Shown piece by piece: positions 45,074-63,620 of a stretch of 64,000 bases of DNA. Origin of the DNA: Candidatus Latescibacterota bacterium (GTDB taxonomy: Bacteria; Latescibacterota; UBA2968; UBA8231). Location of the stretch: assembly GCA_965208105.1 (NCBI GenBank), contig OZ242318.1, forward strand, positions 992,001 through 1,056,000, given 5' to 3'. The notes under the pieces are model-generated. The model ran no database searches, was not told where the DNA came from, and worked only from the letters and a program-made list of their open reading frames with translations. Each line of letters begins with the position of its first letter. Within the stretch, counting starts at the first letter, position 1. Made by a program: the position numbers and the translations under genes.

Positions 45074-45709
45074 CTATGGGGGATTATTCTCCATCCAATT
45101 GCCCATGAAGTCGAAAAGTTCAAGCGAGTAAGGATCAACCTTCGGCAAGTTCCTTGCCTGTAGAGCAATCTCGCTATGGGGCGGCTGTGGGTCGGCTGTC
45201 TGTATTTCTGATACGTACCCTGGAATCGCGGAGTTCAGCGCCAAGAAGAAGCGCTTTTGAGGTTGTCTGAGCCGAAGGTGCTTCTCGAATTTTCGCCTCC
45301 TTCTTGTCAGATCGTCCTCTTTCCTCGATCTCAGTTTCTTTTCGCTGGCGGAGAGCAAGAAATACCCGTCCGGAAATCCTATCGATTTTTCCGCCACTAA
45401 CTCTCTGAGCAAACCAAAATCTCGCTTCCAGGTTGCGGGACTTTCGTAGACCCAGTCATACCAGACCTTCAGGTGGTCTCCATCCAGGACTACCAAAGCG
45501 GATTTCTTGGAATGCTCCAAGGCGATCTTCCACCTGTCAACCGACCTCTCAATGAACCAATTGGAAAGCGCTTCTCCTTCTAGATCGGGCGGAATGGCAA
45601 ACAGTGGTGGAATTTCGTCGACAACATGTGCTTGGTGTCGTTCGGCCATCGCGTACGATGTTGTCGTTTTCCCGACAGCGCTTGGTCCCTCGATGCAAAT
45701 GATCGCCAC
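45074..45709 (-). CDS. P-loop nucleotide kinase-like protein (cassette)
   Basis: IICIEGPSAVGKTT, VLDGD. Confidence 0.75.
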   Translation of the reverse strand: MAIICIEGPSAVGKTTTSYAMAERHQAHVVDEIPPLFAIPPDLEGEALSNWFIERSVDRWKIALEHSKKSALVVLDGDHLKVWYDWVYESPATWKRDFGLLRELVAEKSIGFPDGYFLLSASEKKLRSRKEDDLTRRRRKFEKHLRLRQPQKRFFLALNSAIPGYVSEIQTADPQPPHSEIALQARNLPKVDPYSLELFDFMGNWMENNPP

Positions 45710-45767: not shown

Positions 45768-45856
45768 GGCTGACGTCTCACGGTTTGCGAACCTGCGCGG
45801 CGGGTTGCCGAAGGCCAACGGCCAAACGGCGAGCGGCGTGAATTGCTGTGATATAC
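45768..45856 (-). repeat. attC-like site 1 (non-canonical GTC/GAT cores)
   Basis: ggctgac..cggtttgcgaacc..ttgccgaaggccaa..cgtgaattgctgt-gatatac. Confidence 0.75.
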
Positions 45857-45896
45857 GACGTGGCCCTTTTCTCAACAAGCTGATAAATGTGGACGC

Positions 45897-46232
45897 TCAA
45901 CTTTCACCAAGTGCTCTCGGCTCAAATACGTCGAGGACCGCTGCTTCTGAGTGTGGTCGCAGGATAGTACGCTCAGCAAATTCCTCAGCGTCTGGGTAGC
46001 CGGTAGTCCGAACACGATTGGCCGCTTTCTCAAAATCATAGAGCGTGCACCTGAACTGAACATCAGAGTCTATCATGAGCCAATGTGCACCCCGTTCTCC
46101 GTAGGGCATTGGTCCGGACACCACATCGCCCCCGATCACGAAATGATCAACCTGCTCCGCGGCAACATCCTCTATCACAGATTCAAGAGCTGGTGCATTA
46201 CCATGGATGTCATAGATGGCTGCAATTCGCAT
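45897..46232 (-). pseudogene. Metallophosphoesterase with an in-frame internal deletion (cassette)
   Basis: DIHGN..GGDVVSGPMP joined directly to YGERGAHW; the central GN.D and HG motifs are missing. Confidence 0.7.
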
Positions 46233-46312
46233 GACAGGTCTCCTTAGCTGGAGCCATGAGTATTCGAAATTGAACAACCTTCTGATGTTTTCTGATTCCT
46301 CTTGTCCATGTC

Positions 46313-46455
46313 ATATATCGTTCTGCCGGTTTGCGAACCCCGAGCTTGTTGAGGGGTTGCCCAAGGCCAAAGCGGCTATTACTTCATCTTTTATCAGGGT
46401 AAGTCTCCCATCATGTCCTGCGGAGTGCAGATCTCCGAACACGGACGTGTTAGGC
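46313..46455 (-). repeat. attC-like site 2, chimeric (contains a 74-bp PIN-TA remnant)
   Basis: atatatc..gccggtttgcgaacccc..ccaa [46372-46445, similar to 49605-49678] cgt-gttaggc. Confidence 0.78.
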
Positions 46456-46463
46456 GGCGTTGG

Positions 46464-47306
46464 TCAACTCACGCCGCCCTTCAAAAGACAACGCAGTGCA
46501 GTAAGGCTCTCCAGAGCCTTCTCTCGGGGGCGGACCTCAATGCAGTAGTCGGCGATATCCGCCTCGCTTAGACGGGGCAAAAAATCCATGAAGTCTATAA
46601 ATCCCGTTCCAATTACTCGATGTTGTCGGGGTGGCTCAGACCAATAGTCGTGCAAATGAACCTGCCTCACCTGGCTCAGATGGTTCCAAAAGTACTTCTC
46701 CAACGTCTCATCTTTTGTTCCGTCTCGATCAAAGGTTTTCGCCAGATCCCAGCACAGAAAGAGCTCCCCTGCATCCACAAACGGTCCCAGTGTATCTAGA
46801 ATCATCTCGTCCAGTTTGTAGTTTTCGCATACGAGCAGAAACCGGCCACGTACCAATCGGGTGATATCGTGAAGACTCTGGGATAGCCTCTCCAGATAGG
46901 CCGACAAAGCCGCTTTCGGAAGAGCTTGCTCTGGAGTGGTATCCGTCTTCCAGCTTGGCAAGGAACCAAGGTGAATCGTCACCAGATTGGCGCCTATGTT
47001 TTCGGCAAACCGGAAGAGGGCGCTATAGTAGTCGAAGATACCCTGCCTCAGATAGCCGTTGGTTTCAAGCAGCGAAACGGTCTCGTCCGGCGCGTGCAAT
47101 GCAATGCTCATTTGATTCCGTTGGACGAAATCAAGTATCTCTGCGCACGCCTGCGCAGACACTCCTTCGTACGAGAATCTGGGAACTTCACACGCAAGCT
47201 GTATGCCTGTGAAACCGTTCGACCTGGCATACCGAAGGGCGTCCATGATAGAATCTTCGTAGACTGCATGATAACTAATGTTCTGCAAAATATTATCGCT
47301 CTTCAT
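46464..47306 (-). CDS. Sugar phosphate isomerase/epimerase, TIM barrel (cassette)
   Basis: ALHAP, TIHLG, CEN, WD..K, VHLHD, H..IG.G.ID, IEV. Confidence 0.78.
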   Translation of the reverse strand: MKSDNILQNISYHAVYEDSIMDALRYARSNGFTGIQLACEVPRFSYEGVSAQACAEILDFVQRNQMSIALHAPDETVSLLETNGYLRQGIFDYYSALFRFAENIGANLVTIHLGSLPSWKTDTTPEQALPKAALSAYLERLSQSLHDITRLVRGRFLLVCENYKLDEMILDTLGPFVDAGELFLCWDLAKTFDRDGTKDETLEKYFWNHLSQVRQVHLHDYWSEPPRQHRVIGTGFIDFMDFLPRLSEADIADYCIEVRPREKALESLTALRCLLKGGVS

Positions 47307-47340
47307 CGCGCCTCAGATCCAGATCTTGCTTGCCAATGTC

Positions 47341-47432
47341 GCCTAAGTTTTCACAATTCACGAAGCCGCGCGGAAGCGGGTTGCCGAAGGCCAACGGCCG
47401 AACGGCGCGCGGCGTGAATTCCTGTGTTACAG
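47341..47432 (-). repeat. attC-like site 3
   Basis: gcctaag..cacaattcacg pairs with cgtgaatt(cc)tgtg; ends gttacag. Confidence 0.82.
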
Positions 47433-47478
47433 GTTGGCGGCGCGCCCCCGTCACGGCGAAGCGCTCGCAAACCCACTT

Positions 47479-48513
47479 CTACTCCATGTTGCCCATGGCC
47501 TGACGGCGGCGGCGGTTAGCAAGTTCGCGTAAGTCCACAACCACATCAGTTTCATCCACAATCTCCTGTCCAATAAGCTCTTCAAGCACGTCTTCCAAGG
47601 TCACCACACCCTCCAATCCACCTAATTCATCAATCACGACAAACAAATGTTGCCGGAGTTCAAGAAACATGCGCAGAACTCGATCCAACGTCAGCGTCTC
47701 CAGCACGAAGTGCGCAGATCGCGCGAGACTCTGCAGGGAGACATTTTCGCGGTTCTCGGCAACTGCTGATAGAAGATCCTGACGGTGGACGATCCCAACA
47801 ACATCGTCAGCATCTTTATCATCTACTATCGGAATACGAGCATATGATGGCACACCCCTTTGCAGCACCTCATCTACTTTCTGCCGTGCTGGAAGGGAAT
47901 AAATGACCGTGCGCGGTGTCATGATTTCCTGAACTGTTTTCTCTTTCAACGATAGAATGTTCTGAACGGCCCGGCCTCCTTCTGAATCAATGGTACCCGC
48001 ACGTCGCCCCATCTGCACCAATGCTATGAGCTCCTCCGAAGAAACAACATGCTCAACCTTGCCACGAGATATTAGCCGTGTCATAAATTGGCACAGCCAG
48101 ATAAGCGGTGTTTGTGTCCAGATCAAAAGTTGGATGGGATATGCAATCCAGGACACAAGGTGACGGGCATAGACCACGCCAATCGTCTTTGGAACAATCT
48201 CAGAGAACATAAGAATCACGAGGGTAAATACCGCTGAAAAATGCGGCAACCACGGTTCGCCCAAAACATCAGCGGCTGCTGCTCCAGCAAGGGCGGCTCC
48301 AACCGTATGCGCAATTGTGTTAAGAGATAGGATACCCGCGATGGGCGCATCCACATTTTCTCTAAACTTTTTCATTAATCGGCCAGGAGCACTGCCAGAT
48401 TTCGCCAGCGATTCGACATGACCAAGGGGAGCCGAGTACAATGCCGCTTCAAAAAGTGAACACAAAAAAGAAAAGAAAACGGCAAAACTCACAAAGAATA
48501 TCAATTCAAACAT
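47479..48513 (-). CDS. CNNM/DUF21-CBS (HlyC/CorC-like) membrane protein (cassette)
   Basis: SF.CS..EA, LNT..T.GA, SEI.PK, IMTPR, DE.GG..G.VTLEDVLEELIG.EI.DE. Confidence 0.9.
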   Translation of the reverse strand: MFELIFFVSFAVFFSFLCSLFEAALYSAPLGHVESLAKSGSAPGRLMKKFRENVDAPIAGILSLNTIAHTVGAALAGAAAADVLGEPWLPHFSAVFTLVILMFSEIVPKTIGVVYARHLVSWIAYPIQLLIWTQTPLIWLCQFMTRLISRGKVEHVVSSEELIALVQMGRRAGTIDSEGGRAVQNILSLKEKTVQEIMTPRTVIYSLPARQKVDEVLQRGVPSYARIPIVDDKDADDVVGIVHRQDLLSAVAENRENVSLQSLARSAHFVLETLTLDRVLRMFLELRQHLFVVIDELGGLEGVVTLEDVLEELIGQEIVDETDVVVDLRELANRRRRQAMGNME

Positions 48514-48603
48514 CTGATTACCCCCCTTTGCTTAGAAAACCGCAATTTGCTTTTGTGCATGATTTGCCGGTGTGGGGTTGTGGGACAACCTTGCGCCGCT
48601 TTC

Positions 48604-48696
48604 CTGTAACGTCTTACCGATTGCCGAACTCGCCGAAGGCGAGTTGCCGACAGGCCAGGCCGCCAATGCGCCGTAGCGGCGAACGATTTGTTATAT
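48604..48696 (-). repeat. attC-like site 4
   Basis: ctgtaac..aactcgcc-gaa-ggcgagtt..gttatat. Confidence 0.82.
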
Positions 48697-48708
48697 GAAG
48701 TGGGGTCA

Positions 48709-49275
48709 TCACTTGCGTGCGGCCATTCGATCGAACGCACTCGGGCGGACACGATGTGTCCAAGCATCGATAACCGCTGCTGCGTTGGCTTCGACAGGTT
48801 GCGTGGAATCAACTTCCAGATCGTACTCGACGAAACTGTGAACTACCTGAAAGTCCGCTTTCGCCTCGCCAGATCGTCGGTCCCCTCTCTCGCGTTCCCG
48901 CCGCTCTAGCTCTGCAAGCGGACAGTGCACCCCGACAGCGAATACATCGCAATCAGAAAGAAGGCCCACCAGATCTGCCAGCCAAGCCTCGGTCTCGATT
49001 ATGTGGTCAACGATGAGGTTGTTTCCTGCCGCGGCCAAAACTGGAAGACATCGGTGAAACCCGTCGAATACGGCTGGTCGCATTTCTAGCCAGTTGAGTT
49101 CACGATTAAGTATGCGGGACCACGGCAGAGCATTGGAATCGCGCAGATGGTCAAATGAAATATGCCAGAAAGGCGCTTGTAGCGTCTGCTGGAGTTGACG
49201 TGCAAGCGTAGTTTTTCCAGCACTTGATGCGCCGTTGATGAGAATGATCTCGCCCCGGTCTCGATCGCTAGACAT
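48709..49275 (-). CDS. Chloramphenicol phosphotransferase-like kinase (cassette)
   Basis: LINGASSAGKTT, GNNLIVD, VGVHCPL.EL.RRE..RGDR..G.A, YDLEVD. Confidence 0.85.
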   Translation of the reverse strand: MSSDRDRGEIILINGASSAGKTTLARQLQQTLQAPFWHISFDHLRDSNALPWSRILNRELNWLEMRPAVFDGFHRCLPVLAAAGNNLIVDHIIETEAWLADLVGLLSDCDVFAVGVHCPLAELERRERERGDRRSGEAKADFQVVHSFVEYDLEVDSTQPVEANAAAVIDAWTHRVRPSAFDRMAARK

Positions 49276-49318
49276 ATACGCCAAGAGGACGGTTCAGTAG
49301 GTCTTCACACCCGATTTC

Positions 49319-49408
49319 ATATAACGTTGTGCCGGTTTGCGAACCCGCGAAGCGGGTTGCCGGAGGCCAAGGAGCGTTAGCGACGCAGCGCAAACCGTGC
49401 TGTTATGT
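49319..49408 (-). repeat. attC-like site 5
   Basis: atataac..cggtttgcg pairs with cgcaaaccg, extrahelical T; ends gttatgt. Confidence 0.85.
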
Positions 49409-49435
49409 GCTTCAGGCTGACGCGGCGGAGTGGGG

Positions 49436-49627
49436 TTACGAAGCTTTGTGCTCTTTACTAACGGGCCGGCTCTCGCGCCTCTTGGAATGAGACCAGTCTA
49501 TAACCCCGTTGGCATATGCACGCTCTCTTTCGCGGAGCATTTCGCCAAGGCGCTTCACGTCAAAGCTGTGCTCTCGAGCAATATCCTCCTTGGTCTTCCA
49601 CAAGGCGGCTATTACTTCATCCTTCAT
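49436..49627 (-). CDS. Putative antitoxin downstream of the PIN gene
   Basis: TGATG overlap; MKDEVIAALWKTKEDIAREHSFDV..L. Confidence 0.65.
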   Translation of the reverse strand: MKDEVIAALWKTKEDIAREHSFDVKRLGEMLRERERAYANGVIDWSHSKRRESRPVSKEHKAS

Positions 49628-50103
49628 CAGGGTAAGTCTCCTATCATTTCCTGCGGAGTGCCGATCTCCGGACACGGATGCCCATGCTCAGTACAGAGTG
49701 CTCAAACCCGTGGCTTGAGCAGAGCATTGTCAATGTGCTTGAAGTTCCAGGTGAGAAGATAATCGACAGTGTGCACAACCGATAGGGCAATATGGAATGC
49801 GTCATCAGCGGCACTAATGGGTAGCGGACCAGGATGCACGAGCCTACCAGCAAACTCGATAACCTGATCAGACACGGCCAGTAATGGAATACCCTCAAGA
49901 TGCGCCATTCTGCGCTGTGCAGCCTCTGGATCGCCACGGTTGGCTTCCTCTAGCACCAAGGCTGAAGTGCAAAGGTCGAAGTCCTGGCGCTGGTGATTCC
50001 ACCACGACACCGTCACCTCCTGCCAGGCCGCCACCAACGCACTGGGCGATGGCCGCGCTGTCAGGTAACTGACGATCGATGTCTCGATGTAAAGCGACGG
50101 CAT
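49627..50103 (-). pseudogene. PIN-domain toxin with an in-frame TGA at 49702-49704 (cassette)
   Basis: YIETSIVSYL..DAFHIA..LLTWNFKHI; the frame continues past TGA to PEIGTPQEM. Confidence 0.78.
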
Positions 50104-50143
50104 GGGAATAAACCTGAGAATAGATCTGAATTCATCCTATTGC

Positions 50144-50231
50144 ACATAACGTTCTCGCGGGCTGCGAACCTGCCGCAGGCAGGTTTCCTGCGAAGGCCGA
50201 ATGGCCCGAGCCGTGGGTGCTCGTGTTAAGC
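50144..50231 (-). repeat. attC-like site 6
   Basis: acataac..aacctgcc-gca-ggcaggtt..ggcc-gaat-ggcc..gttaagc. Confidence 0.82.
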
Positions 50232-50243
50232 GAAGCGGCAGGC

Positions 50244-51320
50244 TTACCAAGGGCCGATCTGTGCTCTAAATCTGGCCTCTTCCATCGGCGGACCCAGCCC
50301 GAGCATCGAGCATAACCTATCGTAGTGAGCCACGGCCCAACCTCTTCGCCAGTCAGGGAAGGCTTGTCCTTGCCAGTGGACTGATGAGCCAACGAGCTCG
50401 GCCCCCCATGTCAGTGAGGAGAGAGCCCAAGCGTGGTAATCAGCTGCCAGACGATGGAGTCGCTCCCAACAATCGTCTGGAAACGCGCGGTGGGTCTCAT
50501 ATCCATCCTGAAATGCACCGAAATATCGACGGTCCAGACCCAGAATAGAGGCATACAGAAGCGAAATCTCCAACGCGCCATCACAAATCTCAATTGGCCC
50601 GAAGTCAATGCACCCTGATAGACGAAAACCATCCGGCGTCCTGTCCAATATGAAGTGCTCTTCCCACGGTTCCTCACTTGCCAGTCCGGGCGGAAACAGC
50701 GGATCATCCGGCGGACGAGCCAGGTGTCTCTCAGCCCTTGAAAACAAACTCCTTACGTCGAGCTCCAGACTTTCTAGAATTAGACAAACTCTGTCCAGCT
50801 CATGCGCCACTCGCTCGCGACGCCGATCTAGGTGGTAGAGAGGGTCTGAGCGATGGTCATTGACCCTGGCGGATAGTTCAAGATGGTCGGCAGCAGCTAG
50901 AAGCGAACTCCCATCTGCCGTGTGATAACTCGCCATCCCCTCCCCAAGACCACAAAAGAGCTTCAGACGTTCAACTTCATCGACTTCCTGCCAGAGCAGA
51001 TCGAGGCGTTTTCCAGGACACTTTTCCGTAATGAGGTACGACGCGTCCAGCGACAGATCACGTTCGCACCAGGTAATAACCCTTGGCGTCGGAAAAGCTG
51101 GCTCTACCTCCAGGAGTCGATAGTCTTCCTCATCTTCCTTGAAGGCGAGAAACTGGAGAGCGTAGGTATCATCCAAATAGTAGATGACTTTCTCGTTCCC
51201 TCTCCCTTCAGATTCTATCTTGCTCGGATCTGGAATTGAGTGGCGAGCACAGATCTCGGTAATGTCCTCGCGAGTCAGACGCTCTCTAAAATCGTCCTCT
51301 GGCCGCCCTATGCGTTCCAT
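50244..51320 (-). CDS. Aminoglycoside phosphotransferase-like protein (cassette)
   Basis: PTPRV, YLITEK.PG, SGCIDFG; the catalytic HGD region is divergent (SEEPWEEH). Confidence 0.65.
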   Translation of the reverse strand: MERIGRPEDDFRERLTREDITEICARHSIPDPSKIESEGRGNEKVIYYLDDTYALQFLAFKEDEEDYRLLEVEPAFPTPRVITWCERDLSLDASYLITEKCPGKRLDLLWQEVDEVERLKLFCGLGEGMASYHTADGSSLLAAADHLELSARVNDHRSDPLYHLDRRRERVAHELDRVCLILESLELDVRSLFSRAERHLARPPDDPLFPPGLASEEPWEEHFILDRTPDGFRLSGCIDFGPIEICDGALEISLLYASILGLDRRYFGAFQDGYETHRAFPDDCWERLHRLAADYHAWALSSLTWGAELVGSSVHWQGQAFPDWRRGWAVAHYDRLCSMLGLGPPMEEARFRAQIGPW

Positions 51321-51350
51321 CGGCTGACATCCTCTCAAGCCTGCCGTTTC

Positions 51351-51454
51351 GCTTAACATTTACGCCGGTTTGCGAACGCCGAGCTGGCCGAGGCGTTGCC
51401 CGAAGGGCCAAGACGCCCGCAAGGGCGGCGCAGCGCAACACCGTGCTGTTACGC
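51351..51454 (-). repeat. attC-like site 7
   Basis: gcttaac..ccggtttgcg..gccc-gaa-gggc..cgccc-gcaa-gggcg..cgcaacaccgtgct-gttacgc. Confidence 0.85.
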
Positions 51455-51481
51455 GCTGGTCTGTCTCAATCAATCTCGTGG

Positions 51482-52453
51482 TCAATCAAGCTCCTCGATG
51501 TTGCGTCTAATACAATCGAGTACGAGATCAATTCTGGAGTCGGGGAAAGATGCACTTCCCCACGCGTTGATGTAGAGAGACGGCGTTCCAAGACTGAAAA
51601 TATTGCGTGCTGCCGCGAACGCTGGGATTGCCTGCAATTCCCAATCTCTCAGCGGCCGAATCTCCTGGTACCCCTTGAGGAAGGCCTCCGCGTTCTCCTC
51701 GGGTGCCTTCCAGTACATGACCTCCGTGAAGTAGGTCGCGACATCATACACGCGCCAACCCAACCCGCAAAAATCGAAATCCAAAAAGCTCATTGCGCCG
51801 CTTGGGCTTACTTTCGTGTTTGACGCGCTCACGTCACCGTGCAGAAGCCCATAAAACGGCTTCTCCTGCTCCAGGCTGCAAATTCTGGGCTCAAGGATCG
51901 CGCAGACCTCCTTGAGGTAGGCGACGGACTCCGCCCGATGAGGTACTGCCTCCCGGAAAGCCTCAATGGGTCGTTGTACCATCATGTTGAAATCAATGCA
52001 CGGACGGTTGATCGCTGCCTTCATTGAATCGGCAGCCGAGTGTATCCTGGCGATTTGTGAGCCCAACTGCGCAACTGTCTCCACACTGGGTGTCCGGCTG
52101 AGATGATCCCCATGTATGTATGCGAACAATACGCCGTGACGCAGGCCTTCAGGCGCTTCGAGCGCAAGCATTCGGGCATCGTCTTTTGGCCGAATTGGTG
52201 GCCCAACAGACACACCCTCCCTATCAAGGTGTTCAATCAGATCGAGCTCAGACTCGATCTCGGCTGAATTTCGGCTGAGATGTTGATAAACACAGAGAAC
52301 GAAATCACCTTCGGAAGACCACACACGGTAGGTGTCACGAATTGTACCCTTGATCAACTGACAGTGCACCTGAGACAGACGAAATGCGTCCTCGATGATC
52401 TCAGAGAGGGCGTTCGTACATAGAAATGACTTACTGATCGGTAGCGGATTCAC
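51482..52453 (-). CDS. Homoserine kinase type II-like phosphotransferase (cassette)
   Basis: LLHGD...N, FLDFDFCG.GWR.YD.A. Confidence 0.85.
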   Translation of the reverse strand: MNPLPISKSFLCTNALSEIIEDAFRLSQVHCQLIKGTIRDTYRVWSSEGDFVLCVYQHLSRNSAEIESELDLIEHLDREGVSVGPPIRPKDDARMLALEAPEGLRHGVLFAYIHGDHLSRTPSVETVAQLGSQIARIHSAADSMKAAINRPCIDFNMMVQRPIEAFREAVPHRAESVAYLKEVCAILEPRICSLEQEKPFYGLLHGDVSASNTKVSPSGAMSFLDFDFCGLGWRVYDVATYFTEVMYWKAPEENAEAFLKGYQEIRPLRDWELQAIPAFAAARNIFSLGTPSLYINAWGSASFPDSRIDLVLDCIRRNIEELD

Positions 52454-52501
52454 TTCATCAATACTTCACCAATGTCTGATCAACGGCTGGAACGGACTTG
52501 C

Positions 52502-52600
52502 GCGTAACGTTTTCACCGGTTGCGAACGCCGAGCTTGTCGAGGCGTTTCCCGTAGGGACAAGGCGCGCACTCGCCGCAGCGCAACACCGTGCTGTTACCC
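52502..52600 (-). repeat. attC-like site 8
   Basis: gcgtaac..ccggttgcgaacgcc..cgcaacaccgtgct-gttaccc. Confidence 0.85.
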
Positions 52601-52631
52601 GATGGCGGCATCAAGGAGAAAGCTACCGAAC

Positions 52632-53174
52632 TCAAACACCTGGCCGCCCAAACTCAACCGAGGCCGTATCAGTCAGCTCGATCTCGTCACCCAGAGCGTG
52701 TTCTGCAACACGAGACACAACAGAAGCTGAAATATCTTCGAAAGGATACGTGGCGTGAGCATCACGAATAAGCACAACTTCCAGGCTCCGGGTCAAGGCC
52801 CCTCGAATCGTTGCACTGACACACATCTCGGAGAGCAGACCGGCTACCGCAATACGGTTCACACCATTGCGTGTGAGAATTTCTATTAGATCAGTGCCGG
52901 CGAATCCGTCGTCCCCTGTTTTGCGCAACACCAACTCCTCCGGGTTTAGCGCTAACTTCGGATGGATGAACCACCCAGGCGTTCCGGGCTCGTCAAGAGT
53001 ACCCGGTGGACCGTCGTTCTGTAGATGGACCACAAGAGTCCCAGCAGATCTTGCGGCGGCCAATAATGCGACGAGGTGCTCTAGAACCACGGCAGAGTCA
53101 GGGACTGCTCGTTCTCCTTCCAACAATCCTTGCTGCGCATCAACTATGAGTAGGGCTGTGATTGATTTTTTCAT
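52632..53174 (-). CDS. Isochorismatase/cysteine hydrolase (cassette)
   Basis: ALLIVDAQ, K...D.F.GT, G..SEMCV..T.R.A, DAH. Confidence 0.88.
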   Translation of the reverse strand: MKKSITALLIVDAQQGLLEGERAVPDSAVVLEHLVALLAAARSAGTLVVHLQNDGPPGTLDEPGTPGWFIHPKLALNPEELVLRKTGDDGFAGTDLIEILTRNGVNRIAVAGLLSEMCVSATIRGALTRSLEVVLIRDAHATYPFEDISASVVSRVAEHALGDEIELTDTASVEFGRPGV

Positions 53175-53253
53175 GCAAGTCTACCATTCACTGGCCTGGT
53201 CCACCTCCATGAGAAGTATGTCATTTGCAGGCTTTCTCGATCATGCCGCTTTC

Positions 53254-53334
53254 GGGTAACGTTTTCGCCGTGCCCGAACCGCGTAGCGGTTGCGCGAAGG
53301 GCGAAGCCCGAAGCCGGGCACGGACGTGTTATAG
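53254..53334 (-). repeat. attC-like site 9
   Basis: gggtaac..CCGTGCCCG [aaccgc-gta-gcggtt][gggc-gaa-gccc] CGGGCACGG..gttatag. Confidence 0.88.
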
Positions 53335-53380
53335 GATGTGCCAGACGGGGGTAAAGGGGAAACCCTTTCTCCGACACATG

Positions 53381-53944
53381 TCATGCTTCAAGCGACATCC
53401 AATGCCTTCGGCAACTGAACGCCAGTTCATAGAGTGCAGCGAAATCCTGATCGTCATCGGAGAATAGTTCTGCAGCTTTGCTATAAGTGACGGTCCGGAC
53501 TTCAATGATGGAGCTGTCACGATCAGAATCTGACGGAGAGCCAACCCGATCTGCATCTGCGCACGAAACAACTCTCACATGAATGGGGTGGGGAAAATTA
53601 GGTAGCCTGGGTTGGGGTTCTCTTGATGTACAATGGTACATGCCCATCGGATAAACATTGCTCAAGGCTGCACCCGTTTCTTCCATGACCTCTCGATGCG
53701 CAGCCTGCAGCCAGTCCTCTCCAAGTTCCAAGGTGCCCCCAGGCAACACCCACCTACCATTCTCGCGCATGGTCACCAGGCACTCGTTCTCCGAGACAAA
53801 CGGAATTACATATGACGAGCCGCAGCACGAAGCTACGATTTCGGAATCGAAGTTGACGAAATCGATTCCCTCTCCCCTACGACTCTGTAACGCCGGAAAA
53901 TCTCCGGCCAATCTGTCGAAATCGGCCTCAGCCAGAAACTTCAC
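53381..53944 (-). CDS. NUDIX hydrolase (cassette)
   Basis: PGGTLELGEDWLQAAHREVMEETG Nudix box. Confidence 0.88.
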   Translation of the reverse strand: MKFLAEADFDRLAGDFPALQSRRGEGIDFVNFDSEIVASCCGSSYVIPFVSENECLVTMRENGRWVLPGGTLELGEDWLQAAHREVMEETGAALSNVYPMGMYHCTSREPQPRLPNFPHPIHVRVVSCADADRVGSPSDSDRDSSIIEVRTVTYSKAAELFSDDDQDFAALYELAFSCRRHWMSLEA

Positions 53945-53967
53945 ACCATCTCCTCATCTGGCATTTC

Positions 53968-54051
53968 CTATAACGTTATGCCGGTTGCCGAACTCGCGAA
54001 TGCGGTTGCGCGAAGGGCGAACGCCCGGAGCCGGGCACGGACGTGTTATGT
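53968..54051 (-). repeat. attC-like site 10
   Basis: ctataac..gcggttgcgcgaagggcgaacgcccggagccgggcacggacgt-gttatgt; right half nearly identical to site 9. Confidence 0.88.
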
Positions 54052-54080
54052 GTTTTGTGCCCTGCGGTGGGGTGGGTGGG

Positions 54081-54356
54081 CTACTTGAGGGTCAGTTCCA
54101 AACGTCGACCAAGCGCGTGTGTCACCTTGCGCAAAGTCGACAGCTTGATGTCCTCGGCGTGATTCTCCATACGCGATATTGCCGTCTTTTTGGTTCCAAT
54201 GCGCTCGGCAAGTTCATCCTGGGTCAAGCCCGCGGCTTCTCGGGCTTGCCGAAGTAGGACTCCAATCTCGAAATCTCGATAGCCCTCCTCAAATCCTTCG
54301 GCAAAACGAGGATCCGTCTTCTTCCTGCGCGAAATGTATTTCTCCACATCACTCAT
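54081..54356 (-). CDS. XRE-family HTH antitoxin (cassette)
   Basis: AREAAGLTQDELA.RIGTKK.AISRMEN. Confidence 0.88.
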   Translation of the reverse strand: MSDVEKYISRRKKTDPRFAEGFEEGYRDFEIGVLLRQAREAAGLTQDELAERIGTKKTAISRMENHAEDIKLSTLRKVTHALGRRLELTLK

Positions 54357-54716
54357 GACGATGCTCCTCTCTTGCGGCCTAGATATTCTAGCCGATAGCG
54401 CTCAGCTCGACGAATTTCACCTCGGTCGGTCTTAGCGGTCTTCTTGGAATACCCGTGTGTGACAACGAGGTCGCCGCCGTACACAAAAAATGAAAAGAAC
54501 CGATAGGCTCCGCTGGACGTTTTCACCCGGCACTCCCAGATGTCGTCGGTGCCTACTAGCTTCTTGAGATATTGTCTCGGAACGCGGGTCAATTCGTTCG
54601 ATCAAACGAAAGACCCACAATACCTTCTGAGCATCACTCCCGTCGAGCCTGTCGAGAAACTCCCGAACAGGACATCTGCTGTCCTTCGTACGGTAGAATT
54701 CAATGGATCTGCCCAC
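54353..54716 (-). pseudogene. RelE/HigB (Gp49-like) toxin with a frameshift near 54590
   Basis: IEFY..CPV.EFL..KVLW in one frame and KKL.GT..IWE.RV..THG..KKT in another. Confidence 0.8.
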
Positions 54717-54722
54717 GCATTT

Positions 54723-54751
54723 ATGTTAACACGCACGTTAACCTAAGTCAA
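54723..54751 (-). promoter_or_regulatory. TA cassette promoter with operator
   Basis: Minus strand TTGACT-17 nt-TAACAT overlapping GTTAAC-N6-GTTAAC. Confidence 0.7.
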
Positions 54752-54764
54752 CAGGGCACATTGC

Positions 54765-54810
54765 ACATAACGCTTTGCCGGTTTGCGAACCATTGGTTCG
54801 CATAACGGCC
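54765..54810 (-). repeat. attC-like half site 11 (only the GTT/R' arm, closed by a short palindrome)
   Basis: acataac gctttgccggtttgcgaacc-att-ggttcgca; no distal GTT. Confidence 0.65.
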
Positions 54811-55112
54811 GCCAAGTCCTGCTTATCTGAAACGAAGGTACCTATTGCGGAGAGCAGTCGCAACTAAAGTCCTCAAGACCGTATTTTCTCTTAACTCCTT
54901 GATATAATTTGAAATAAACCGATTTTCAACAATTCCGCTCCGCGCGGCGGCGAGCGATCCATCAGGGACCCTCCTTTTCCCTTGCGAAGGTTCTCTGCGA
55001 ATTGCATAGTACCAGTATCGGTCCCTTATGTTCCCGTTCATCCAGACAGGTTCGGGTATTTCGCGAAGTTATCAAAGCGGGATAAACCTGCATTTCCCAA
55101 GGAGGTCGGGCC

Positions 55113-61771: not shown

Positions 61772-61870
61772 ACCTGATGTTTGTGGGTTTATGAACCCCG
61801 AGCTTGTCGAAGGATTGCCGAAGGCCAAGACGCCCGGAGGGCGAGGCAAGCGTAAACCGTTCGGTTACCC
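61772..61870 (-). repeat. attC-like site 13
   Basis: gggtttatgaaccccgagcttgtcga..ttgccgaaggccaagacgccc..cgtaaaccgttcg-gttaccc. Confidence 0.75.
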
Positions 61871-61882
61871 GATAGCGTCATC

Positions 61883-63547
61883 TCATCTGGCCCCGGCTCT
61901 GCGCAGGCGTCCGGCCACTTCGTCATGATCATTGCGCTCAACCCACGCCAACGGCCTGGCCCAGGACGCACCTCCACCGTTGGGATCGGCCCCTCGCTTC
62001 AGCAGTAGCTCAACGGCCTCGAGATGTCCCGCACGCGCTGCGAAGCCCAGAGGTGTCGACCTATCTTCCTCGTCCAGGGCTTCCAGGTCAGCACCGTGGT
62101 CCAGAAACATACGGATGAGCTCCACCGCATGCTTGGCCGTGTACGGTGAGCTCCACAGGTCGTGCAGGGGAGTACGCCGTTGCCAGTCCGGGAGATTTGG
62201 GTCCAGACCGTGTTCCAGCAGCTGCCGCGTCATATGGGGTGCCTGGTACAGGTAGGTTTTGCACTCGGTCAGCACCGCCGGCATGGGATACTTTCGTGCC
62301 AGAAAGATCTTCAGCAACGCCTCGTGCGCGGCGGTAGAGTCGCCTTTGTCCAATCTGCGCCGGTAGCCACTGACGATGGCTGTGTAGGGAGTTCTCTGGA
62401 ATTCCCACTCCTCCTGGCTGAACGGGTCGTCGCAGTAGCGCAGGATTGTGGCTGCCGTCTCCAGCTCGCCGCGCTGCAGATACCCCCATGCAACCCTGGG
62501 TTTGCCACCATGCGAGTAAAGCAGGCCTCGCATCTCGTCGGTCTCGGCCCGGCTCGCCGGAGTGCCGCTGGAGTCGATCCCGCCATTGGGGTCCGCTCCG
62601 GCTTCCAGGAGCCAACCGGCCATCTCGAGGTCGTTCATAAGGGTAGCCGACATCAGCGCGGAGCCCTTCGGACAGGTTCGTGTCTCGCGCAGCCCCGCAT
62701 CGGCTCCCTGATCGAGAAGAAATCGCGCTATCTGCCGGTGACCGCGCTCAACAGCCGCCGAAAGTGGCCGCTTCCCCAGCGTGTCAGGATCGTTGGCCTG
62801 AGGGGTGTGGGCTTGTACGAAACCCCGCAAGGCATCCATATCCCCACGCGCCGCCGCCAGCGTCGCAGAATCCTTGGCCCCCGTACGGTACAAGGCATTC
62901 GCCAATTGCTCGGGATTCTCTCGCAGGTTCCAGTAGGTACCGCCCCAGTAGGCGTAGTGAACGGGCCGAAATCCAGCGTGGTCGACAGCATCCACCGGCG
63001 CGCCGACATCGAGAAGAGCCCGCAAGGATATTTCGTCGCGCTTTATCACCGCCGAATGAAGGGGGGTTCGGCCGTCGCGATCAACTTGCTCCACAAGCTC
63101 CGGCGCAGCAGCCAGCAAACGTTTCACTTCCTCACTGTCTTCCAGGTCGATGGCTTCGTGGAGTCGCAGGTCGGAGACAACCGCATCCACACCAACTTCG
63201 CTGCGAAGATACTCGGAGACTTCTGTGTGACCGCGATCGTCGGCCAACTCGATCAAATGGGCAGGTTTTTCGGGCCGATGTGCGGCCCAGAGTGTTTTCG
63301 TCGCTTCCAGATTGCCTTCTCGCACGGCGAAGTGAATCGGGGTCGTGTACCAGAACTCGAGCCGAGCGCAGTGCGGATCGTCGGCAAGGCGCCGCTGCAG
63401 AATTTCGACCTCGTTGCGAATCGCCGCGCAGAACAGGTCCCAGGCCAGGCGGCCTTCTTCGGTTTCCACACACCGTGCCGGACGTATCATGCCGTCGATT
63501 TTGTCCTGCGCCGTCCGTCCGTCCTCGTCGGGTAACCTTCTCACCAT
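61883..63547 (-). CDS. Ankyrin repeat protein
   Basis: Multiple TPLH/TPIH..A..G..LL..GADPN repeats. Confidence 0.9.
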   Translation of the reverse strand: MVRRLPDEDGRTAQDKIDGMIRPARCVETEEGRLAWDLFCAAIRNEVEILQRRLADDPHCARLEFWYTTPIHFAVREGNLEATKTLWAAHRPEKPAHLIELADDRGHTEVSEYLRSEVGVDAVVSDLRLHEAIDLEDSEEVKRLLAAAPELVEQVDRDGRTPLHSAVIKRDEISLRALLDVGAPVDAVDHAGFRPVHYAYWGGTYWNLRENPEQLANALYRTGAKDSATLAAARGDMDALRGFVQAHTPQANDPDTLGKRPLSAAVERGHRQIARFLLDQGADAGLRETRTCPKGSALMSATLMNDLEMAGWLLEAGADPNGGIDSSGTPASRAETDEMRGLLYSHGGKPRVAWGYLQRGELETAATILRYCDDPFSQEEWEFQRTPYTAIVSGYRRRLDKGDSTAAHEALLKIFLARKYPMPAVLTECKTYLYQAPHMTRQLLEHGLDPNLPDWQRRTPLHDLWSSPYTAKHAVELIRMFLDHGADLEALDEEDRSTPLGFAARAGHLEAVELLLKRGADPNGGGASWARPLAWVERNDHDEVAGRLRRAGAR

Positions 63548-63557
63548 TTGCAACCCC

Positions 63558-63620
63558 GCCTAAGAGAAGTCTCGAAGGCCAAGGGGCGAATGTCCCTTGG
63601 CGATAATGGGTACGATATAT
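63558..63620 (-). repeat. Degenerate attC-like site 14
   Basis: gcctaag..cgaaggccaag..gatatatgaag shares motifs with sites 3, 4 and 13. Confidence 0.4.

Follow-up and report, generated by a model that had tools for sequence, protein, structure and literature searches.

In a 64,000-nucleotide (nt) stretch of the genome of a Candidatus Latescibacterota bacterium (contig OZ242318.1, positions 992,001 to 1,056,000; the whole stretch is called the window), an array of gene cassettes is bounded by hairpin sites, and the two ends of each cassette match each other further than the boxes of these sites reach. The array at 45850-54771 consists of ten units with one or two minus-strand open reading frames (ORFs) each, spaced by imperfect palindromes of 83-106 nt. 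Read on the plus strand of the window, each palindrome has a ...TAAC box at its left end and a GTTA... box at its right end. The functions of the ORFs are unrelated. Eight of the ten first ORFs have Pfam matches, all of them to enzyme, kinase or transporter families, including metallophosphoesterase, TIM-barrel isomerase-like, CNNM/CBS, chloramphenicol-phosphotransferase-like, isochorismatase and two APH-family kinase matches; two small ORFs have no match. This layout is the anatomy of an integron cassette array.

On balance, we favour the explanation that the array is of the integron type, that its sites belong to a lineage-wide family of attC-like hairpins with an extended R-box helix, and that an adjacent recombinase without the integron-specific insertion is the probable user of these sites. 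The assignment of the site as a putative attC variant, and with it its presumed function, is drawn from sequence. In the excised circle, the plus strand would pair at positions 1-9 or 10, form a T·G pair at position 11 and then pair again over a cassette-specific stretch (median 4 bp, up to 10). The longer helix would stabilise the folded bottom strand of the free cassette, an R arm of 15-20 bp would give the recombinase a longer duplex at the crossover side, and the one-sided T·G wobble may help to favour the bottom over the top strand. The cognate enzyme would be the adjacent recombinase, a close relative of the integron integrase IntI without the I2 domain, which may lean on helix and wobble because it is without the domain that reads extrahelical bases.

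Cassette ends that match beyond the boxes

For each cassette, the plus strand rightward from the GTTA box was compared with the reverse-complemented stretch that ends at the following TAAC box. Eight of the ten window units have ends that are identical at positions 1-8, units 1 and 2 have degenerate boxes, and position 9 usually matches. Identity picks up again at position 12 and runs to about 17-21. A first-pass annotation, made from the letters of the window, had described for each cassette its own terminal inverted repeat of 15-30 bp with an invariant mismatch at position 11. The end strings quoted there are correct (20/21 identical in the APH cassette, 25/30 in the isochorismatase cassette). 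Position 11 indeed never matches in these ten cassettes; it is A at the 5' end (minus strand) in 10/10, and at the 3' end (plus strand) it is G in eight and T in two.

A nhmmer profile of eight window sites (E <= 0.01) was used to search the 4.85-Mb genome and found 85 sites of the family, about 60 of them in one array at 2.010-2.061 Mb and others in smaller arrays. The left box holds AAC in 66 and the right box GTT in 73 of the 85 sites. They give 73 pairs of neighbouring sites, and the 44 with identical positions 5-8 were taken as true cassettes. Own ends are identical at positions 12-17 in 37, 33, 33, 29, 27 and 23 of these 44 cassettes, where base composition predicts fractions of 0.49, 0.39, 0.35, 0.27, 0.32 and 0.26, and identity is down to background by position 20 (9/44). 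The own-end pairing of about 7-11 nt by which attC sites are recognised is exceeded, positions 12-17 pairing again at 52-84% identity. Position 11 matches in 6/44. The observation that several boxes break the GTTRRRY rule extends to the whole genome, with a pyrimidine at position 5 in 32/44 cassettes.

When partners were permuted, the observed value was reached in 0/2000 permutations for positions 15-24 and in 0/5000 for positions 12-19. The comparison of own with shuffled ends, which had been proposed as a check, is thus in favour of own ends. A control was restricted to the 52 cassettes that share positions 1-9 with another cassette. Here own ends match at 5.29 of the nine positions 12-20 and non-own ends at 3.58 (96 pairs). 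Own ends thus exceed non-own ends even where the box is the same, which goes beyond a common consensus, and the extra complementarity is cassette-specific as had been suggested. Among 30 same-box cassette pairs, which are not independent of each other, 28 stem cells have a base pair that differs between the two cassettes.

The length of the pairing is more modest than the window had led to expect. Over the genome as a whole, pairs run on from position 12 for a median of 4 positions (1 for non-own ends; range 0-10), so that total pairing is usually about 15-16; values of 19-21 are the tail, and the 25/30 case is exceptional. The window cassettes lie on the long side of these runs. An inverted repeat of 15-30 bp therefore overstates the rule, of which it covers the upper tail.

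The same pattern is found in relatives. Eight loci from other genera and families within the phylum supplied 73 candidate cassettes, of which 33 passed the filter. Their own ends are identical at position 9 in 100%, at position 10 in 60%, at position 11 in 3% and at positions 12-15 in 87, 84, 78 and 75%, with background reached by position 19; the observed value was reached in 0/5000 permutations.

That the flanks are a protein-recognition sequence needed on both arms and merely palindromic, in which the sequence matters and not the helix, appears very improbable to us. Such a sequence would account for the bias of positions 8-14 on both ends (G8 in 44/44, A11 in 40/44 at one end and G in 35/44 at the other, T12 and G13 common), but own ends match better than non-own ends even when positions 1-9 are identical, and matching persists at 66, 61 and 52% even at positions 15-17, where composition bias is slight.

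Recombining strand and the wobble at position 11

Contigs from other populations fix the box in which the cassettes are joined. Contigs of runs X1, X2 and X3, from three studies, connect 50146 straight to 51354, the unit 50150-51356 being absent. This skip of cassette 6 measures 1207 nt with an ambiguity of 4 nt and equals the distance from TAAC box 6 to TAAC box 7, whereas crossovers in the right boxes would predict 1223 nt. In the same way, contigs of X1 and X2 connect 53264 to 53980, from box 9 to box 10, and the unit 53260-53973 is absent. Read depth at 50265-51317 is zero in four runs, which is informative only through the bridging contigs. Populations therefore differ in the presence of entire cassettes, joined in the plus-strand TAAC box; the exact bond inside TAAC is beyond the resolution of the contigs. 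Since the joint falls in its TAAC box, the R' box of the bottom strand, the plus strand is the recombining bottom strand. A further skip in contigs of three runs, of 370 nt (54424-54793), removes part of the overlapping toxin-like ORFs of cassette 10 together with the last box.

Several other features were used to orient the sites. The sense ORF (minus strand in the window) is longer than the antisense ORF in 43/44 cassettes genome-wide. The site interiors on the plus strand are G-rich and A-rich, with positive GC skew in 6/8 and positive AT skew in 6/8. The ORFs point away from that end of the array which carries the recombinase gene and a conserved platform. The opposite assignment, with plus as the top strand, was suggested by a left arm about 3 nt longer on the plus strand, as extrahelical bases share the arm with AAC on the top strand. 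It was rejected on account of ORF direction, purine skew, the side of the wobble and the position of recombinase and platform, and most decisively because the cassette-sized skips connect one left box with the next.

Both halves of the extended pairing lie within one cassette and therefore meet only in the excised circle. In the array the helix cannot form because the ORF separates the two halves. It had been proposed that the extra complementarity is situated outside the crossover and can form only after excision, and the position of both halves agrees with this. The TAA of the TAAC box serves as stop codon of the main ORF in 5/44 cassettes, where the ORF thus stops one base short of the cassette end.

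The mismatch at position 11 takes on another meaning once the strand is known. Of 77 cassettes (44 here and 33 in relatives), 61 have T·G at position 11 on the plus strand, 7 a Watson-Crick pair, 1 a reverse wobble and 8 something else; on the top strand the T·G position is an A·C mismatch. Position 10 of the same 77 cassettes is Watson-Crick in 46, a plus-strand wobble in 11 and an other-strand wobble in 0. Because position 11 is a T·G wobble there, the helix of the recombining strand is almost continuous from position 1 to about 16, and the internal loop which the first-pass annotation had placed at an invariant mismatch was not borne out. Purine enrichment and G:T pairs are marks of the bottom strand in the available part of Nivina et al. 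(2016). The wobble at position 11 is a strand asymmetry of the kind described there for G:T pairs, fixed at one position.

This wobble also bears on the origin of the matched ends. They could be a by-product of the making or copying of cassettes, by an inverted copy at the joining of site and gene or by hairpin-templated repair in the circle. The matching is cassette-specific and fades gradually with distance, as a copying footprint would, and the origin of cassettes is unknown according to the parts of the literature available. Still, we hold this explanation to be improbable, since such a footprint leaves unexplained a fixed, strand-asymmetric wobble at one position as well as same-box cassettes with different, internally matched stems, and no mechanism for it is known.

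Circularising the plus strand of eight cassettes in silico and folding it as DNA gave a mean of -37.3 kcal/mol with own ends, as compared to -27.4 kcal/mol with non-own left flanks and -25.9 kcal/mol for the boxes without flanks (8 sites). In this check, which had been proposed along with the extended stem, own flanks add about 10 kcal/mol to the site. Three sites folded as DNA on both strands form a box stem and an inner stem of 9-11 bp, with Z-scores against shuffles of only -1.1 to -2.9. In the folds of sites 5 and 7 there is a single bulged base in the plus-strand 3' arm, and the main asymmetry consists of 4-5 unpaired nt in the 5' arm. On the folded plus strand of site 5, the box stem is followed by 4 unpaired nt in the 5' arm, then by 2 bp and a single bulged base in the 3' arm, and finally by a stem of 9 bp. 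RNAalifold returned no consensus pairs on 22 aligned sites, so that the profile model of the sites is sequence-only.

The A at position 11 of the cassette 5' end is part of an ATG at positions 11-13 in 20/44 cassettes (e.g. window 53964-53962). Its use as start codon was considered and rejected, as it starts the main ORF in 1 cassette and opens only short frames of 1-54 codons in the other 19.

Ordinary integrons and a recombinase beside the arrays

The first-pass annotation had set the extended pairing against an established short R'/R'' pairing. This premise is too narrow. The available part of Bouvier et al. (2009) gives self-pairing past the 7-nt boxes, to 9-11 consecutive nt, in most cassettes. 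As comparators we used 80 loci around integron-integrase genes of many phyla and three class 1 plasmid integrons (83 loci). A search for AAC...GTT hairpins by minimum energy alone was unspecific in this G+C-rich DNA and was discarded. The scan adopted in its place required a spanning inner stem, own complementarity that is exact over 7 nt, and chaining. The scan retains false pairs, G being missing at position 8 in about 20% of own chained pairs. It found 191 chained cassettes in 37/83 loci, with identity of 59, 56, 44, 39 and 37% at positions 8-12 and of 24, 27, 29, 24 and 18% at positions 13-17, the values from position 13 onward (18-30%) being background. Identity runs from position 8 have lengths of 0-7 in 78, 30, 32, 20, 11, 16, 3 and 1 cassettes and stop sharply at position 12. 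Five class 1 cassettes inspected by eye have 8, 8, 9, 11 and 13 consecutive matches.

The same scan of the present genome (42 cassettes, false pairs included) gives 9% identity at position 11 and 73, 66, 71, 50, 52 and 52% at positions 12-17. Pairing to about position 12 is routine in the comparators; therefore only the fixed wobble and the second stretch are specific for the family, and of the extension first proposed this latter part stands. A full-text literature search, with supplements outside its scope, found no description of the wobble plus second stem.

It may be argued that all this is ordinary attC behaviour, the upper tail of a self-pairing of 9-11 nt without a role of its own, and that the difference at position 11 is a neutral trait of the family. 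The 9-11 nt in the accessible part of Bouvier et al. (2009), comparators that pair to about position 12, class 1 cassettes with 8-13 matches and a median extra stem of only 4 bp all fit this view. We nevertheless consider it unlikely. In the same scan the comparators are at background from position 13 (24-29%) as against 50-73% at positions 12-17 here, and 0/23 comparator loci with at least three chained cassettes reach the two large arrays of this genome (at most 2.6/6 versus 3.7 and 4.0). Moreover, the wobble is one-sided (61 versus 1 of 77) and kept across genera. The sites are set apart from the 37 ordinary integrase-linked loci by one and the same scan, in agreement with the proposal of a distinct family of recombination sites.

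Placed beside integron attC sites (attCaadA7, Vibrio cholerae repeats), the sites of the family are alike in the AAC and GTT boxes that end an imperfect hairpin of about 80-105 nt, in one site per promoterless ORF and in one orientation. They are also alike in that box positions 5-7 belong to the cassette, that the crossover falls in the AAC box of the purine-rich strand and that self-pairing exceeds 7 nt. They are unlike attC in a helix that continues through the conserved T·G at position 11 for about 4-8 more cassette-specific pairs, in the box, which is GTTANNNG and not GTTRRRY, and in a lopsided central spacer (about 5 unpaired nt versus 0-1) with at most one bulged base. Terminal inverted repeats of the transposon type were rejected: no transposase is among the Pfam matches, the units adjoin hairpin sites and no target-site duplication was seen. 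Xer-dependent dif modules are bounded by 28-bp XerC/XerD sites in alternating orientation. They were rejected as well, since the present sites are hairpins of 83-106 nt, all in one orientation.

The most interesting aspect lies outside the window array described by the first-pass annotation and is a recombinase travelling with the site family. Integron integrases are defined by an insertion that reads the flipped-out bases of the folded attC. In this genome no integron integrase above the family cut-off was found (TIGR02249 model, cut-off 265 bits). The gene at the end of the main array has the integron-integrase model as its best match, with 216 bits (after a stop codon). The match comes in two pieces, leaving model positions 180-234 unmatched. 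The recombinase is without 37 alignment columns that are present in ten integron integrases of the phylum; they are the region of the conserved ALxRKYP motif, the integron-specific insertion (about 35 residues, I2 domain). An adjacent integrase with the insertion near patch III, as found in a complete integron, is absent. Intact orthologues have 312 amino acids in a congener (93% identical) and 322 in another family (81% identical) and score 230.7 and 240.9 bits against TIGR02249, where a canonical control scores 465. Against the XerA-type model NF040815 (cut-off 220) the gene of this genome scores 196.7 and the orthologues 213.3 and 215.2, all below the cut-off. The best solved relative is VchIntIA (IntI4, 2A3V; E 2.5e-45, matched in two pieces), and among NCBIfam families IntI matches best.

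In two quick maximum-likelihood trees, the canonical integrases stand on one side of a branch that excludes the recombinase (Shimodaira-Hasegawa-like approximate likelihood ratio test, SH-aLRT, 99 and 100). All 17 canonical integrases lie on one side of the SH-aLRT 100 branch and the recombinase falls outside their group, in trees that are without a reliable root. The array-linked clade nests among widespread insertion-less recombinases of the domain make-up PF13495 + PF00589. The divergent recombinase that had been postulated thus takes the form of an insertion-less integrase relative beside the arrays, below the cut-off and outside the canonical clade in quick trees. Homologues of it with 49-51% identity occur in 6-7 copies per genome (G042:C1 2493564-2495718 and 2158606-2160403; G041 in six places), and in two cases the copy immediately follows a canonical integron-integrase gene or a fragment of one.

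Sites of the family were found in 71/151 genomes of the phylum searched, canonical integron integrases above the cut-off in 17/168 and relatives of the insertion-less recombinase (E <= 1e-45) in 28/168. Family sites lie within the fetched 20 kb in 8/8 recombinase loci that were picked with nearby sites known, and within 10 kb in 7/10 loci picked without knowledge of sites. Canonical integrases occur in only 2/13 genomes with at least 20 site matches, and the 20 kb on either side of five canonical integrase genes from the phylum contained no family site (10 loci; site profile and self-BLAST). The stretch from array to gene is conserved in five genomes, at six loci with the two copies of this genome, and comprises the last TAAC box, a hairpin of 15 bp and about 150 bases more, after which comes the recombinase gene. 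In the window, 54764-54960 is homologous to the stretch between main array and recombinase gene, and no recombinase gene comes after it. This platform (window 54764-54960; L001 1215-1500; L128, L129, L133) has no GTT box after the hairpin and is conserved across genera; it would be unusual for an attI-like site to be a hairpin itself. Among loci L128-L135 and L138-L147 two arrangements occur: recombinases that are 74-93% identical to that of this genome are divergent from the cassette ORFs, and recombinases that are 56-64% identical are co-directional with them. The latter arrangement recalls "inverted integrase" integrons.

As in sedentary chromosomal integrons and in clusters of attC sites lacking integron integrases (CALIN; Cury et al. 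2016), there is a large chromosomal array of about 60 sites with satellites and one homogeneous site family, and the window array is without an integrase gene, as in CALIN. Unlike in CALIN, a conserved recombinase, which does not fit the definition of an integron integrase, flanks the main arrays. A program that requires the integron-specific region would presumably score all these arrays as integrase-less clusters. The recombinase is like IntI in that its gene, in the closest clade, has the same position and divergent orientation beside the array, and unlike it in lacking the insertion of about 35 residues, in its score and in its place outside the canonical clade in both quick trees. It resembles PF13495 + PF00589 recombinases (annotated XerD-like or "site-specific tyrosine recombinase/integron integrase"; NF040815, XerA type) in domain make-up, length and 50-61% identity; it differs in staying below the NF040815 cut-off too, and in that several of the relatives are multi-copy in a genome.

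The recombinase might also be irrelevant, the arrays being remnants served by a canonical integrase in trans or by one that was lost, in other words integrase-less attC clusters. Canonical integrases do occur in 17/168 genomes, and the gene of this genome contains a stop codon. Recombinases without the integron-specific region near attC are described in the available part of Cury et al. (2016) as scattered, with fewer than three sites, and were judged not to be integron integrases. The conserved clade beside arrays of tens of sites differs in kind from those cases, as far as that part describes them. With linkage and the array-to-gene stretch conserved across genera, intact orthologues, a canonical integrase in only 2/13 site-rich genomes and no family site near the five canonical genes, we consider it unlikely that the recombinase has no part in the arrays. 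No report of an insertion-less recombinase linked to large arrays was found in a full-text literature search with supplements outside its scope, among them Supplementary Figure S1 of Cury et al. (2016), a tree of recombinases near attC, which may bear on the question.

Going further, we tentatively consider as possible that the arrays are a separate integron-like branch of gene capture, with a recombinase without the I2 insertion and with the R-arm helix and the bottom-strand-only wobble partly replacing the reading of extrahelical bases. Such a recombinase would never have had the insertion or would do without it, and would be a candidate for the "functional intermediary form" in the accessible part of Escudero et al. 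(2016).

Several points weigh against the favoured explanation of an extended helix used by the adjacent recombinase. The extra stem has 0-1 pairs in 11/44 cassettes here and in 5/33 of the relatives, about a fifth. Positions 12-14 are compositionally biased (T, G, G/C), because of which part of the match there is family consensus. The energy gap between bottom and top strand is small (-37.3 versus -36.2 kcal/mol), and in the array form the plus strand folds better in only 2/3 sites. Textbook extrahelical bases are not apparent, and the asymmetry of the arms is mostly in the central spacer, where it would naively favour the opposite strand. Among the ten loci picked without knowledge of sites, three are without a nearby site, two of them at contig ends, and 4/13 genomes with at least 20 site matches have no recombinase match at E <= 1e-45. 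The recombinase gene of this genome has an in-frame TAA stop early in the frame, and the trees are quick searches with no good outgroup. Recombination was not observed, and stem, wobble and recombinase have presumptive roles.

The available part of Escudero et al. (2016) holds that the I2 domain and attC co-evolved and poses the chicken-and-egg question which of them came first. Because the origin of attC and I2 is an acknowledged puzzle there, the linkage of an insertion-less recombinase to the arrays is of interest. If this recombinase recombines the sites, a lineage escapes the definition by which integrons are found, an integrase may exist for many arrays now called "integrase-less", and the question becomes open to test with a pair of intact genes and simple site mutants. 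Should it not do so, the pairing is still a well-documented, family-specific variant of attC end pairing, with the ordinary part (to about position 12) delimited. The homogeneous attC-like family of this phylum is altered in architecture by its longer end helix, its wobble on one side only and its lopsided spacer.

Features of the window array

The coordinates of cassettes and sites are collected in Table 1.

Table 1. Cassettes, attC-type sites and related features of the window
Feature	Coordinates	Strand	Remarks
Ten-cassette array	45850-54771	ORFs on -	+ strand is bottom (recombining) strand of sites, from ORF direction and contig-fixed crossover box
Site 1, degenerate attC-type	45770-45857	+	left box lost; right box GAT for GTT
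Cassette 1	45850-46319	-	metallophosphoesterase-like ORF 45897-46277; both end boxes with identical T-to-A change at position 2
Site 2, disrupted/hybrid attC	46312-46456	+	about 75 nt resembling 49606-49680 between its halves (by eye)
Cassette 2	46449-47347	-	xylose-isomerase-like TIM barrel ORF 46464-47306; 5' box degenerate (CTTAGGCG, CTT...)
Site 3, attC-type	47340-47433	+	
Cassette 3	47426-48610	-	CNNM/CBS ORF 47479-48513
Cassette 3 end halves	47426-47443 / 48593-48610		positions 1-8 and 12-18 identical; 9-11 differ
Site 4, attC-type	48603-48697	+	
Cassette 4	48690-49325	-	chloramphenicol-phosphotransferase-like ORF 48709-49284; ends match at 1-10, 12, 14-17
Site 5, attC-type	49318-49409	+	
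Cassette 5	49402-50150	-	small ORFs 49436-49675 and 49702-50103, no Pfam match; ends match at 1-9, 13-15, 17-19
Site 6, attC-type	50143-50232	+	
Cassette 6	50225-51357	-	APH-family ORF 50244-51359; end halves 50225-50245 / 51337-51357, 20/21 identical
Site 7, attC-type	51350-51455	+	
Cassette 7	51448-52508	-	APH/choline-kinase-like ORF 51482-52453; ends match at 1-9, 12-14, 16-17
Site 8, attC-type	52501-52601	+	
Cassette 8	52594-53260	-	isochorismatase ORF 52632-53174; end halves 52594-52623 / 53231-53260, 25/30 identical
Site 9, attC-type (short subtype)	53253-53335	+	
Cassette 9	53328-53974	-	ORF 53381-53944, NUDIX by the label of the first-pass annotation only; ends match at 1-9, 12-18
Site 10, attC-type	53967-54052	+	
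Cassette 10	54045-54771	-	ORF 54081-54356 and overlapping ORFs 54353-54716, RelE toxin-antitoxin pair by the label of the first-pass annotation only; ends match at 1-8, 12-20
Array end	54764-54960	+	last TAAC box, near-perfect 15-bp hairpin, about 190 bp shared with main-array stretch
Two more family sites	61789-61869, 63530-63617	+	flank 1673-nt unit; sites and unit together 61789-63617

GAT in place of GTT at both ends is found in three cassettes (window 45850/46319, genome 1076531/1077308 and 2024610/2025190), a matched change at position 2 within a triplet that is invariant elsewhere. Site 2 has the first half of one attC subtype and the last part of the other, and the insert between them is nearly identical to the start region of a small ORF at 49606-49680; the hybrid looks like a scar of recombination or insertion. 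In cassette 10, the overlapping ORFs 54353-54592 and 54432-54716 suggest a frameshifted gene. The ends of the 1673-nt unit between the two further family sites match through position 9 and no further. To the left of the first degenerate site, a 211-amino-acid ORF without Pfam match (45074-45709) may be a further, decayed cassette.

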